Below, piece after piece: positions 11,335 to 45,382 of a stretch of 64,000 nt of DNA. Each line of letters starts with the position of its first letter. The stretch's first letter is position 1. The stretch comes from a virus (taxonomy: Duplodnaviria > Caudoviricetes). The notes beneath the pieces were generated by a model. The model made no database searches. It worked only from the letters and a program-made list of their open reading frames with translations, and was not told the DNA's origin. The stretch is from IMG/VR virus record IMGVR_UViG_3300032302_000065; one strand, 5' to 3'. Both the position numbers and the translations under genes were made by a program.

Positions 11335-12081
11335 ATGGCTTTACCTAAATTTAACAACCCAATTTTTGAATTGACTTTACCATCTACTGGACAATCAGTC
11401 AAATACAGACCATTCTTAGTAAAGGAACAAAAACTTCTTTTGCTTGCTTTAGAAGGCAACAATCAAAATGAAGTTTTGACTGCAATTAAACAGATTGTTG
11501 GTAATTGCGCTATCGATGATATTGACCCAAGCAAAATTGCACTATTCGATTTAGAATATTTCTTTATGAGACTTAGATCAAAATCTATTGGTGAATCAAT
11601 TGATTTGAGATTGAGACATCCGACAGGATTCAATTCTAATAATGAAGAGTGTGACCACATGACTCCAATCTCAGTAGATTTGCTAAGTGTTGAAGTTGAG
11701 AAATTGGAAAATCATACCGATAAAATTATTCTAGATGATGAGACTGGAATTGGTGTTAAACTTAAATATCCAAATGTGGACATGGCAATTGCAACAAATA
11801 AAACTATTGAAGGCAAGAACCAAATGGATATTGCTACAGATGCAATCATTAACAGCATCGAATACATTTTTGATAAAGAAACAGTATACAAAAAAGAAGA
11901 TTCTACCAAGAAAGAATTGATTGAATTCATTGAGAATTTAACTCAAGATCAATATTTAAAACTTACAAAGTTTTTTGAAACTATGCCAAAGTTAAAGCAC
12001 AAAGTAGAGTGGACTTGCAAAAAGTGTGGATGTAGAGATGACGTAACTTTGGAGGGCTTGTCAAATTTTTTCGGCTTCTGA
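11335..12081 (+). CDS. gp26: Baseplate hub assembly protein gp26
   Basis: MALPK...YRPFLVKEQK.LL.A; DLEY.F..LR.KSIGE; LEGL.NFF. Confidence 0.9.
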   Translation: MALPKFNNPIFELTLPSTGQSVKYRPFLVKEQKLLLLALEGNNQNEVLTAIKQIVGNCAIDDIDPSKIALFDLEYFFMRLRSKSIGESIDLRLRHPTGFNSNNEECDHMTPISVDLLSVEVEKLENHTDKIILDDETGIGVKLKYPNVDMAIATNKTIEGKNQMDIATDAIINSIEYIFDKETVYKKEDSTKKELIEFIENLTQDQYLKLTKFFETMPKLKHKVEWTCKKCGCRDDVTLEGLSNFFGF

Positions 12082-24194: not shown

Positions 24195-24749
24195 TTAGAA
24201 TTTTGGATTTAGTTTATAATCTGCGAAAGAACCTGCGGCTCTGTCTTTGTCTGATAGAATGAAGTCTTTGATTGTATCAATTGATTGCCAATCGATATTC
24301 AAATCTGTATCAAATGGATTAATTGCGGCTTCTGCTTTGGAATTATGTACTGCTGTGCATTTGTACATTAGATGCGTATATTCTGCTAATGAAAGAAACG
24401 CATGACCAAAACCTGCTGGTACCCATAACTGATTGTTTGATTCTGGTCCTAACAACTCAGCATGATACTGTCCGTATGTTGGAGAATCTTTTCGTAAATC
24501 AATTGCAACATCAAGTCCATATCCATGAGTGACACGAACCAATTTACCCATTGGTTTGTCCCATTGGAAATGAATACCTCTTAGAACATGTTTTTTTGAT
24601 ACGGATTGATTGTCTTGAAGAAATTTTACGCCAAGTGCGTCTTCAACTTCTGGTCTGAATGTCTCTGTAAAGAAACCACGATTGTCTCTATAAACAGGTA
24701 GATTGATGATTTTAACATCAGGGATTATTTTCGAATCAGTTATTTTCAT
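24195..24749 (-). CDS. rmlC: dTDP-4-dehydrorhamnose 3,5-epimerase
   Basis: DNRGFF.E, QDNQS.S...VLRGIHFQ, DLRKDSPTYG, VPAGFGHAF, LSDKD. Confidence 0.95.
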   Translation of the reverse strand: MKITDSKIIPDVKIINLPVYRDNRGFFTETFRPEVEDALGVKFLQDNQSVSKKHVLRGIHFQWDKPMGKLVRVTHGYGLDVAIDLRKDSPTYGQYHAELLGPESNNQLWVPAGFGHAFLSLAEYTHLMYKCTAVHNSKAEAAINPFDTDLNIDWQSIDTIKDFILSDKDRAAGSFADYKLNPKF

Positions 24750-24764
24750 TATTACTCCATAAAT

Positions 24765-25030
24765 TGGTGACAGGTTATTCTGTTACGAGGAAACCTGTCG
24801 AAACCCTAGTCAGCGTTTAGGCTGCCAATGCGAACTGTGAGTCGTTTGCGTTTACTTTTTTTTAGTTTTAACATCTACTCTGATGTGCTGTCCACTCTGG
24901 TACTCTTTGCCCTGTCGAAACTATGCACCCCCATCAAAAACACACTTCATGGATGGAATGTGTTTTTGGTGGAGGTGGGGGGATTCGCACCCCCGTCCAG
25001 AACCTTTTTCTCTTTGCTTCATACAGCAAT
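24765..25030 (-). ncRNA. ssrA: Circularly permuted (two-piece) tmRNA; tag ANDSQFALAA
   Basis: Minus-strand order: acceptor piece ending GGGGGTGCGAATCCCCCCACCTCCACCA (24967), hairpin spacer, coding piece starting GGGGGTG (24932) giving a G3:U pair, tag frame 24849-24817. Confidence 0.93.
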
Positions 25031-25031
25031 A

Positions 25032-25169
25032 TCAATCATAAGGTGGCCAACCAGTGTCCGCCTTACTATCTTCTTCAAAATTATTCCAATCGTAGGTTGC
25101 AACTTTGTAAATCCAAAATGCATGTAGTCCTACAACAAGAATTAATAAAATTATATCACTATTTATCAT
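25032..25169 (-). CDS. 45-aa membrane peptide (not in the ORF track)
   Basis: MINSDIILLILVVGLHAFWIYKVATYDWNNFEEDSKADTGWPPYD; fills the gap between the exonuclease gene and tmRNA. Confidence 0.55.
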   Translation of the reverse strand: MINSDIILLILVVGLHAFWIYKVATYDWNNFEEDSKADTGWPPYD

Positions 25170-42700: not shown

Positions 42701-42712
42701 TTTTAAAGAACA
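42701..42712 (-). promoter_or_regulatory. boxA-like antitermination site
   Basis: TGTTCTTTAAAA between the promoter and tRNA-Glu. Confidence 0.65.
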
Positions 42713-42740: not shown

Positions 42741-42804
42741 AGTATAACACTCTACACATTTTTTGTCAACAACAATTTTTGATAACTGTTGTTTTTTTGC
42801 AACA
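42741..42804 (-). promoter_or_regulatory. Internal tRNA-array promoter plus TGTTG-N8-CAACA palindrome
   Basis: TTGACA-17-TATACT; palindrome at 42787-42804. Confidence 0.85.
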
Positions 42805-43850: not shown

Positions 43851-43866
43851 AAATTGTTAAAGAACG
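43851..43866 (-). promoter_or_regulatory. rrn-type boxA antitermination site
   Basis: CGTTCTTTAACAATTT versus E. coli rrn leader boxA TGCTCTTTAACAATTT. Confidence 0.8.
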
Positions 43867-43892
43867 TTTGTAATATATTCGATGATATACAC

Positions 43893-43929
43893 AAAGAAAA
43901 ACCCCCTAGAGTTTTCAGTCTCTAGGGGG
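43893..43929 (-). terminator. Attenuator terminator upstream of the tRNA array
   Basis: CCCCCTAGAG-ACTGAAAA-CTCTAGGGGG followed by TTTTTCTTT. Confidence 0.92.
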
Positions 43930-43984
43930 CTTGTCTTTGTATTCTCTTTAGGACTTTTTTGGTCCTCAGGTATAACAAGCCCCC
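43925..43984 (-). promoter_or_regulatory. Antiterminator helix, mutually exclusive with the terminator
   Basis: GGGGGCTTGT (43984-43975) pairs with ACAAGCCCCC (43934-43925) and sequesters the terminator's CCCCC. Confidence 0.8.
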
Positions 43985-44082
43985 ATCACTGGTGCGTGGC
44001 AATCGGATTTCTCAAAGCGAGAAATACTCTGCCACGTAATTGGCATATAATTTCTTGTTGAGAGTTTCGAAATTAAATTCAT
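43966..44082 (-). CDS. Putative attenuator leader peptide (38 aa, all 20 amino acids)
   Basis: MNLISKLSTRNYMPITWQSISRFEKSDCHAPVMGACYT*; ATG 1 nt after the upstream TAA; last codons overlap the antiterminator strand. Confidence 0.75.
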   Translation of the reverse strand: MNLISKLSTRNYMPITWQSISRFEKSDCHAPVMGACYT

Positions 44083-44083
44083 T

Positions 44084-44368
44084 TTAGAGTACCGTTTCTT
44101 TCGTATAAATGTTAGACCATTTCTGGAGTTTTTCTTTTTTCTTTCGTGATGCGTTATCTACTTCATCAATATTAATAATACCTGTTTCAATCATCAATTG
44201 AATCATACAAAATAAATCACCAACTTCTTCTGTCAATCGTTCACGATTAGATGCGCCATTGTGTTGTGCATGTAATCCAAATCGAAAAACCTTACTGATT
44301 GCCTGTGTCACTTCTGCACATTCTTCCTGTGCAATCAATAAAATTTCTTTCTCATTCGCATTAATCAT
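44084..44368 (-). CDS. MazG-like NTP pyrophosphohydrolase
   Basis: EECAEV.QA.SK..RFG; L.EEVGDL. Confidence 0.8.
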   Translation of the reverse strand: MINANEKEILLIAQEECAEVTQAISKVFRFGLHAQHNGASNRERLTEEVGDLFCMIQLMIETGIINIDEVDNASRKKKEKLQKWSNIYTKETVL

Positions 44369-44388: not shown

Positions 44389-44691
44389 TCACACATTCTG
44401 AATGAATTCTTTCACCAAGAATCGTTTCACTTCCCATGCGTTAGTCATTCGCACAGTCTTTTCTTTACTATTCAATCTGTATGTAATATATAGTCTTTTT
44501 GGAGCAGAAATTACCACAGCACCAAAAATATTTTTACTGAGTCCAAATGGTATCACATAAGCATCACCGTTGTCAAGTTTCTTCTTGGCATAACCATTAG
44601 CACCTTTGATCTTATCAAGACCACCAAATCGAACTGTATCTAAAATTTCAACAGCCATCGATTGTCGTGGACCCATACCATCAATATACAT
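44389..44691 (-). CDS. Hypothetical protein
   Basis: TAAGGA RBS before MYIDG. Confidence 0.55.
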   Translation of the reverse strand: MYIDGMGPRQSMAVEILDTVRFGGLDKIKGANGYAKKKLDNGDAYVIPFGLSKNIFGAVVISAPKRLYITYRLNSKEKTVRMTNAWEVKRFLVKEFIQNV

Positions 44692-44804: not shown

Positions 44805-45041
44805 TTAAAATTCAGGCTCTCCATAACTTCCGTAATCCTCATCGGTTCCATATCCTGCTGAAGCCATAGCGGAATCAAAATCTCCGTCCATGTCATCATT
44901 ATACTCTGGATCAATAAAATTTGCAACAAATTCATCTACCATTTCAACTGGTAAATTAAGCATCATCGCAATCGTAGATTCTTCATAACCTTTTGCGTAC
45001 AACTCTTCAATTTCCATCGCCAATTCAGCCATCTTACTCAT
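44805..45041 (-). CDS. Small HTH-like acidic protein
   Basis: TIAMMLNLPVEMV; SA.ASAGYGTDEDYG. Confidence 0.6.
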   Translation of the reverse strand: MSKMAELAMEIEELYAKGYEESTIAMMLNLPVEMVDEFVANFIDPEYNDDMDGDFDSAMASAGYGTDEDYGSYGEPEF

Positions 45042-45382
45042 GCTAGTTCCTTTTGTTTATCCAAAACTTCTTGATACGTCATTGTAGGTTCTTTACTGGT
45101 GATAACACCATCAAACTCCAACTGAGATTTTTCGAACCATGAAAGATAATCATCACTTTCAATGGACCAATCGATCATAGTCTCACGGTTATACTCATTG
45201 TCCGTTTCGATACCAGTCAACGCAAATTTGACTAACTCATTATAGTCCACATTGAGCGGAATGTCAAGTATCTTATACTCGCAACCGCCTTTTGCTTTCC
45301 AATACTGAGGACACTCACCCTCACCATCCCAATCATGTGCGCCATAATTTTCGTGATATTGGGTAGAGATAACTAGCATCAT
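45038..45382 (-). CDS. Hypothetical phage protein
   Basis: TQY.ENYGAHDWDG.GECPQYWK.KGG. Confidence 0.7.
   Translation of the reverse strand: MMLVISTQYHENYGAHDWDGEGECPQYWKAKGGCEYKILDIPLNVDYNELVKFALTGIETDNEYNRETMIDWSIESDDYLSWFEKSQLEFDGVITSKEPTMTYQEVLDKQKELA

Follow-up and report, generated by a model that had tools for sequence, protein, structure and literature searches.

The window, that is, the whole 64,000-nucleotide (nt) stretch of DNA from the tailed-phage record IMGVR_UViG_3300032302_000065 (Duplodnaviria; Caudoviricetes), carries a compact element of about 190 nt that is probably a ribosome-mediated (leader-peptide) transcription attenuator at the head of a phage transfer RNA (tRNA) operon; judging from the element and its relatives at the sequence level, we put the probability of this reading at about 0.7. 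The phage is T4-like, with genes for the gp6 baseplate wedge, gp32 and RNase H. The element consists of a 38-codon leader open reading frame (ORF) encoding the peptide MNLISKLSTRNYMPITWQSISRFEKSDCHAPVMGACYT, in which all 20 amino acids occur by codon 34, and of an RNA switch in which a strand within the last leader codons (D) is complementary to a second strand (E) that also belongs to the 5' arm of an intrinsic terminator (F). Comparison with related loci demonstrates that the ORF is kept open, that complete amino-acid coverage is selected, that the D:E and E:F pairings are alternatives maintained with covariation, that the stop codon keeps its place close to D, and that the promoters are arranged so that, in a subset of the relatives, the only one visible precedes the leader.

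According to the mechanism that we propose, transcripts from the upstream early genes would carry the leader, translationally coupled to a MazG-like gene. Under smooth decoding, the ribosome would cover the last codons and the stop while the polymerase makes E and F, so that D would be masked, E would pair with F and transcription would terminate at the U tract. A ribosome delayed earlier (roughly at codons 2-30) would leave D free when E emerges; D:E would then form and block the terminator, and the polymerase would continue past a boxB-like hairpin and a boxA, where Nus factors would probably be loaded, into the tRNA genes. Every amino acid is represented in the leader, as are, in most cases, the two codon boxes each of Leu, Ser and Arg; phage tRNA synthesis would consequently go up whenever nearly any class of codon is decoded slowly, which would make the element a feedback sensor of the tRNA or aminoacyl-tRNA supply. 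Here we infer that the leader is translated and that ribosome and polymerase are coupled, and we likewise infer what triggers the response biologically and in which direction it goes. All elements are read on the minus strand, in the order MazG-like gene, leader ORF, switch, boxB-like hairpin, boxA and tRNA array, of whose 25 tRNAs tRNA-Gln (43831) is the first:

44084..44368, minus strand: gene for a MazG-like nucleoside triphosphate pyrophosphohydrolase of 94 amino acids (ORF list; phrog_4856, E=1e-23; tblastn matches to phage MazG-like genes)
43966..44082, minus strand: leader ORF, 38 codons plus TGA, the codons without the stop at 43969-44082 (ORF list, sequence)
44020..44055, minus strand: mid-ORF hairpin X, AGAAAT..TGCCA/TGGCA..ATTTCT, inside the leader ORF (folds)
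44036-43995, minus strand: alternative hairpin Y, CGTGGCAG/TTGCCACG, competing with hairpin X (folds)
43984-43975, minus strand: D, the antiterminator 5' strand, GGGGGCTTGT, in codons 33-36; the stop codon begins 6 nt later
43951..43965, minus strand: spacer hairpin GGAC/GTCC in the antiterminator loop (folds)
43934-43925, minus strand: E, the antiterminator 3' strand, ACAAGCCCCC, complementary to D; 8 of its bases are the outer part of the terminator 5' arm
43932-43899, minus strand: intrinsic terminator (F), 13-base-pair (bp) stem and 8-nt loop, with a U tract to 43891 (terminator scan; -22.9 kcal/mol)
43889-43874, minus strand: boxB-like hairpin TATAT-CATCGA-ATATA (sequence)
43865-43854, minus strand: boxA-like element GTTCTTTAACAA, 22 nt 5' of tRNA-Gln (sequence)
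43831-42806, minus strand: tRNA block 1, 11 genes (Gln, Met, Lys, His, Val, Ile, Leu, Arg, Phe, Ser, Ser; ARAGORN)

The preliminary description, made from the window, had already proposed an attenuator at this position, and the parts that it named were recovered: the ORF with its full amino-acid set, on the minus strand; the mid-ORF hairpin CGTGGCA/TGCCACG, boxA and tRNA-Gln; the complementarity between D and an E strand overlapping the terminator 5' arm, where we count 13 stem pairs, the 10 bp reported earlier being the G+C-rich core; and the leader ATG placed right after an upstream stop (TAA-A-ATG), 1 nt 3' of the TAA of the MazG-like gene. In relatives of the L023 type, the two genes instead overlap as ATGA, and both layouts suggest that the leader is translationally coupled to the MazG-like gene. 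An AAGGAAG motif 5' of the L023-type leaders was considered as a Shine-Dalgarno sequence and dropped, as it is part of the MazG-like coding sequence; the stop of that gene overlaps the leader ATG, and coupling is the firmer reading.

Relatives of the leader were gathered through the neighbouring gene for a 116-residue protein, through DNA-pattern scans of IMG/VR and Joint Genome Institute (JGI) metagenomes, and through a scan anchored on a leader-free promoter-boxA module, followed by a scan for the leader type that it revealed. About 115 loci, all from metagenomic lake phages, yielded 52 distinct leader peptides of 34-45 residues, and all 52 are encoded by intact ORFs located 5' of tRNA arrays; the loss of conservation that would have spoken against an attenuator was thus not observed. 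The leaders fall into two clades, clade 1 comprising the window type, L023, L025, L028, L040, L031, L026/L103 and L070, and clade 2 comprising L181 and 26 others. The first half of the clade 2 peptide is recognizably homologous to that of clade 1 (..LS.R...P....W.G.SR..), and the second half is different. A nearly identical leader is present on a 150-kb lake-metagenome contig (L127), and the closest record (G001) is 97-99% identical at the locus and hence too similar to be informative. Searches of GenBank phages (INPHARED; blastn with the leader and with 1.9 kb of upstream sequence) returned no relatives, only tRNA matches; the leader belongs to no PHROG family; and a profile search of a 5.8-billion-cluster protein set retrieved three matching proteins that add no new diversity.

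Several candidates were set aside. L006 and L014 end where their own leaders start and were left out, and four loci recovered through the neighbouring gene (L005, L029, L030 and L032) have other arrangements without a leader. One-gap matches to the DNA pattern (the L035 group, L039, L069 and others) are unrelated loci lacking both the ORF and tRNAs. The promoter-boxA-anchored scan hit mostly internal promoters of tRNA arrays, with L181 as the sole new leader type. A scan of genome contigs gave two matches, about the number expected by chance, on short contigs binned to a cyanobacterial metagenome-assembled genome; neither has an ORF ending at D or tRNAs, and they provide no clue to the host. 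L160 (oriented 11883-12020) and L195 were not counted as attenuators, the D:E-like hairpin barely overlapping the terminator. These two loci encode a 26-codon ORF, MTTRKMHSAFIEYSRPTLDWNGGVRV, with 18 distinct residues, the stop of which lies within a hairpin, GTTCGTGTGT/ACACACGAAC, that abuts the terminator directly 5' of the tRNAs; its 5' end resembles the L070 leader.

The switch is preserved across lineages at the level of RNA. The GGGGRCTT core of D is found in three reading frames, AT[G GGG GCT T] in the window, [GGG GGC TT]G in L070 and T[GG GGA CTT] in L026, and in all three the distance from D to the following stop codon is 3-8 nt (14 nt in L095/L121, which have a 1-nt insertion). Because D is kept in three frames with a close stop, it is, by sequence, an RNA element rather than a peptide motif. 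The D:E helix spans 8-13 bp across lineages, with 98.4% of alignment cells paired, and L026/L103 combine a G-to-A change in D with a C-to-T change in E, the one GC-to-AU compensatory pair of clade 1, which leaves the altered E base mismatched with its terminator partner. In clade 2, which was found through a leader-independent anchor, all three strands have been swapped together, D in the last codons being GAGGGTTTTGG, E in the terminator arm CCAAAACCCTC and F GAGGGTTTT, with the layout and the stop position kept. The terminator is present in all relatives and, sharing 8 nt with the antiterminator, is mutually exclusive with it; in no lineage is the D:E helix (-15 to -30 kcal/mol) less stable than the terminator (-12 to -23 kcal/mol). 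The spacer hairpin GGAC/GTCC is replaced by other hairpins in L026 and clade 2. Hairpin X shows compensatory changes in L031 and L026, and clade 2 has a hairpin of different sequence, CCACT/AGTGG, at the same place; hairpin X is possibly an RNA polymerase pause hairpin. The terminator at 43899-43932 also scores as a terminator on the plus strand, the A-rich tract upstream pairs with the U tract, and all neighbouring genes are on the minus strand.

Selection on the leader as a coding sequence has an unusual form. Substitutions are spread almost evenly over the three codon positions (48:45:57), the ratio of nonsynonymous to synonymous changes (pN/pS) between lineages is 0.5-0.9, and synonymous divergence is lower in the leader than in the neighbouring gene (0.44 versus 0.69), which together indicate that the constraint acts largely on the RNA and that the peptide sequence is weakly constrained. 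The conserved Pro (CCA) and Trp (TGG) codons are the two arms of a covarying hairpin. Indels within the ORF are multiples of three, except for two frame-changing ones that both still have a nearby stop, whereas indels after the stop are of any length. Codons ending in G or C make up 42% of the leader versus 27% of the long ORFs of the window, which may reflect needs of RNA structure or a preference for slowly decoded codons.

What is selected is the amino-acid composition. As claimed in the preliminary description, the window leader samples both boxes of Leu (TTA/CTC), Ser (TCN/AGT) and Arg (AGA/CGC) and, among the 25 downstream tRNA types, leaves only the one for ATA uncovered, with the qualification that its CTC would need tRNA-Leu(UAG) and four-way wobble. 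The chance that 38 residues include all 20 amino acids is about 0.3%, whether estimated from real protein windows, independent draws from the phage composition or random ORFs, and one such ORF among the 184 short ATG ORFs of the window, against about 0.7 expected, is not significant; the test of coverage must therefore come from the relatives. Among these, 36 of the 52 distinct peptides contain all 20 amino acids and the remainder have 18 or 19. We assessed this by a permutation that keeps which sequences share a residue in each alignment column, and thereby phylogeny and site conservation, and redraws only the identities that differ from a reference peptide, from the phage composition or from BLOSUM62-conditioned frequencies. 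Conditional on the window, clade 1 relatives outside the window's own clade have all 20 in 11 of 14 cases (1.4-1.6 expected; P<1/3000) and clade 2 in 16 of 17 (0.2-0.3 expected; P<1/2000); conditional on a clade 2 member, clade 2 has 15 of 16 (2.4-5.2 expected; P<1/3000). Cys, Tyr, Val, Phe and Met shift position among relatives instead of staying put, and coverage can be compressed, being complete within the first 29 codons in L040 and in 36 codons in L242. Of 19 lineage representatives, 14 use both boxes of all three six-codon amino acids (Leu, Ser and Arg), compared with 4.9 expected from codon usage, in a test that treats related sequences as independent. The comparison shows that all-20 coverage is under selection, though not in an absolute manner, and the retention of coverage in leaders 5' of tRNA arrays, together with the D:E compensatory pair and the joint replacement in clade 2, bears out the conservation predicted earlier.

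The promoter arrangement provides a further line of evidence. In agreement with the preliminary description, no credible sigma-70 promoter was found between the window terminator and tRNA-Gln, the best match (9/12) overlapping the tRNA start. In clade 2, the leader ATG lies 6-7 nt 3' of a near-consensus TTGAC(A/T)-17-TATAAT promoter (11/12 and 12/12 matches; e.g. L236:944-972, minus strand, and L255:10480-10508, plus strand). Given this distance, transcription in clade 2 should begin at the AUG or beside it and the leader messenger RNA should be leaderless, an uncommon property among attenuator leaders. Twelve of 16 distinct clade 2 spacers carry no promoter, their 50-53 nt holding only a CATCG-loop hairpin and boxA; the loop is kept and the stems covary (GGC/GCC, GGG/CCC, GGAG/CTCC). 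As the sole visible tRNA promoter in these 12 cases is the one in front of the leader, the sequences imply that the polymerase must read through the terminator. Beyond it, boxA is conserved before the first tRNA in most relatives. In ribosomal RNA (rrn) operons, which are untranslated, a boxA close to GCTCTTTAACAA follows a boxB hairpin near the operon's 5' end. The window boxA and the preceding CATCGA-loop hairpin, both conserved in relatives, fit an rrn-type boxB/boxA site by sequence likeness to this consensus.

Other promoters surround the element. Near-consensus sigma-70 promoters (10-12/12) lie 5' of the leader at 44547-44576, 44898-44926 and 45239-45267 on the minus strand, amid small minus-strand genes, an arrangement that fits an early-gene region feeding transcripts into the putative attenuator. 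Within the array, tRNA-Glu is preceded by a minus-strand module composed of a promoter, TTGACA-17-TATACT (42741-42769), a boxB-like hairpin, GATTGAGAAATCAATC, and a boxA, TGTTCTTTAAAA (42701-42712); this promoter-boxA-tRNA-Glu module is also found in about 60 IMG/VR loci. A module of about 70 bp, with promoter and boxB-like hairpin, is present or absent between terminator and boxA (window 43866-43899 versus L004:4113-4247) in otherwise ~95% identical phages of both clades. In clade 1, it consists of TTGACA-16/17-TATACT and a boxB-like hairpin inserted ahead of boxA, near-identical phages differing by the module alone, and appears to be a recurrent indel, through which an operon with the attenuator alone gains a promoter as well.

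Whether the ribosome position could decide between the two structures was addressed by constrained folds of the window leader in which 28 nt were masked as the ribosome footprint. The full terminator is predicted for a ribosome that has reached the stop or is held at Val32 or Gly34, whereas a ribosome stalled anywhere from Trp17 to Ala30 gives a 10-bp D:E helix and a terminator cut to five apical pairs. With a stall at Lys6 or Tyr12, or with no ribosome, D:E is predicted to form first in the nascent RNA and the terminator to be favoured at equilibrium. The modelled structures thus switch as proposed, and the geometry, with a stop 3-14 nt after D in three frames, fits a decision by the ribosome. 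The earlier caution that stalls at the last codons (Ala, Val, Gly) may still mask the antiterminator holds for Val32 and Gly34; at Ala30, D:E forms in the folds. A segment that would pair with D when the leader is untranslated, as in the 1:2 pairing of trp, appeared in the minimum-energy fold only as a weak 3-bp contact, and no claim is made for it.

Several observations weigh against the attenuator reading or narrow its scope. The equilibrium fold of the window leader in the absence of a ribosome favours the terminator by about 6 kcal/mol; the 5-bp apical part of the terminator, which lies outside D:E, might seed strand displacement and defeat the antiterminator; and, in the model, stalls at Val32 or Gly34 cover D, so that no induction is expected from them. 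Full coverage can be dispensed with, as the window's own clade keeps all 20 amino acids in only 9 of 21 distinct peptides, Phe or Val being frequently lost; moreover, Ala, Val and Gly of the window leader are confined to its last nine codons and, in clade 2, Asp, Glu and Tyr are confined to the tail. The DNA patterns used for searching fixed most of D and E, so that covariation within each clade is under-sampled. Finally, a strong promoter between terminator and tRNAs, which would have contradicted the preliminary proposal, is absent from the window and from the 12 clade 2 spacers; 33 of 40 distinct clade 1 spacers do carry a near-consensus promoter at this place, and there the switch can only add to promoter-driven expression. 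The window array itself has near-consensus internal promoters at 42769-42741, 38977-38949 and 38203-38175, which serve later blocks, and by sequence the switch is accordingly the sole gate only for the first 11 tRNAs (43831-42806).

Some of these points would suit a ribosome-dependent attenuator that reports general translation activity or transcription-translation coupling, with the all-20 composition playing no part in sensing: any stall, or absence of the ribosome, would free D whatever the codon, the window clade tolerates the loss of Phe or Val, and two or three amino acids are confined to the tail, several positions of which should give no induction upon stalling. We consider this unlikely, since all-20 retention in several lineages far exceeds what the phylogeny-aware permutations predict, the residues changing place instead of being conserved, and two-box coverage of Leu, Ser and Arg is enriched as well; a general sensor would leave this composition signal unexplained, and we see no other reason for it.

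The remaining alternatives dispense with attenuation. An ORF followed by a terminator is a complete gene layout, with its own promoter in clade 2 and with invariant residues (M13, W17, Q18, E24 and G34), and most clade 1 relatives have a separate tRNA promoter; the leader could thus be an ordinary small protein gene with the terminator of the upstream operon, the D:E complementarity being incidental and the tRNAs being expressed through leakage or unrecognized promoters. This appears very unlikely, because D is kept as nucleotides in three frames and replaced jointly with E and F in clade 2, codon positions vary almost equally at a pN/pS of 0.5-0.9, the conserved CCA and TGG codons coincide with hairpin arms, the leader has no PHROG family, and the promoter-less variants would be left with at least 11 tRNAs lacking a promoter. 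The nucleotide-level constraint and covarying helices, as well as a fold far better than that of shuffled sequence (z = -6.2), could equally be those of a structured non-coding RNA, such as a small RNA with its 3' end at the terminator or a signal for tRNA precursor processing, with a fortuitous ORF. However, by our own estimate a 38-codon frame of this composition would be open by chance in about 8% of independent cases, and it is open in 52 of 52 distinct versions; the indels are in frame, D has a stop after it in whichever frame it lies, the leader ATG is either coupled to the upstream stop or sits where a leaderless transcript would begin, and a selected amino-acid composition is meaningful only if the ORF is translated. 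Rfam, for its part, returned only a sub-threshold match to His_leader (RF00514; 29.9 bits versus a gathering threshold of 49, with 27.2 bits for the other strand) that covers the terminator hairpin alone. We find a purely non-coding element scarcely credible.

Attenuation by leader peptides is best known from amino-acid operons, including trpL, hisL, pheL, leuL and thrL and the multivalent ilvGMEDA leader. With the trp, his and ilv leaders, the phage element shares a short leader ORF, an intrinsic terminator, an antiterminator 5' strand that a finishing ribosome would mask and an in-leader hairpin that could pause the polymerase, with readthrough expected upon stalling. Unlike in those leaders, there are no runs of a single codon, each amino acid occurring once to a few times, so that the classical enrichment of regulatory codons is replaced by the all-20 composition; the target is tRNAs rather than biosynthetic enzymes; the masked strand lies 5' of the stop codon, not 3'; no clear 1:2-type pairing, as in trp, sequesters D when the leader is untranslated; and the element is encoded by a phage and followed by boxB/boxA. 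By sequence, the logic is that of trp/his/ilv attenuation, from which the phage element departs in covering all amino acids instead of repeating single codons and in having tRNA genes for its target. Related literature includes PMC1183508 and PMC3082878.

Other regulatory systems resemble the phage element in part. In stall-sensing attenuators of antibiotic-resistance genes, such as the bmrCD, vmlR and lmo0919 leaders and the tylosin-induced yxjB leader (PMC6851288), a small upstream ORF serves as a general detector of slowed ribosomes, as the phage leader would, and a stall leads to an antiterminator. Those leaders respond to drug-bound ribosomes in particular peptide contexts and control resistance, whereas the phage composition implies sensing of the decoding supply for all codon classes, with tRNA as the output. 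T-box riboswitches also choose between terminator and antiterminator and sense tRNA charging for genes of the translation apparatus; unlike the phage leader, however, a T-box recognizes a particular uncharged tRNA by direct binding, independently of any ribosome or ORF, and Rfam detected no T-box features at the phage leader. The boxA GTTCTTTAACAA and the small hairpin just 5' of an untranslated RNA operon recall Nus-factor antitermination of rrn operons, but here, as a likeness of sequence alone, they would form a second, downstream layer that leaves the leader ORF and the D:E/E:F switch unexplained. In pyrBI and pyrE, as proposed here, termination depends on how closely the ribosome trails the polymerase through a leader ORF; there the ribosome blocks the terminator hairpin and tight coupling yields readthrough, whereas the phage ORF ends ~35 nt before the terminator arm and tight coupling should terminate.

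Phage tRNA genes, about whose control little is known, have mostly been considered with regard to codon usage or to evasion of host tRNA nucleases. A leader attenuator ahead of a tRNA operon would show a phage measuring decoding speed and adjusting its tRNA supply, extending the trp/his logic to the translation apparatus. We see about an even chance that the element closes a feedback loop on decoding capacity in these T4-like lake phages, in which the leader would serve as a test translation and slow decoding, caused by starvation, post-infection tRNA decay or host anticodon nucleases, would turn on the tRNA operon via the antiterminator, boxA then protecting the transcript from termination; that the element serves in counter-defence against such nucleases is conjecture. 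Full-text literature searches turned up no attenuator or leader peptide that governs tRNA genes, whether of phages or of cells; if the closed loop is real, no earlier attenuator would be known to act on tRNA genes, and no earlier leader peptide to be under selection for containing all 20 amino acids. The all-20 selection represents a new kind of constraint on coding sequence, one of composition rather than of sequence. As the element uses host sigma-70, ribosomes and intrinsic termination, it should work in laboratory bacteria and might be turned into a reporter of translation stress.

Two further features of these phages were recorded. A G+C-rich insert of ~205-280 nt is located between the genes for the 116-residue and MazG-like proteins in L006 (3350-3620), L005, L014 and G001, and is not present in the window; it contains no long ORF and has no Rfam match, and may be a structured RNA or a mobile element. 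In addition to the full tRNA set, the window genome carries a transfer-messenger RNA gene at 24726-25059 (minus strand), with the tag peptide ANDSQFALAA, another ribosome-rescue or translation function of the same phage.

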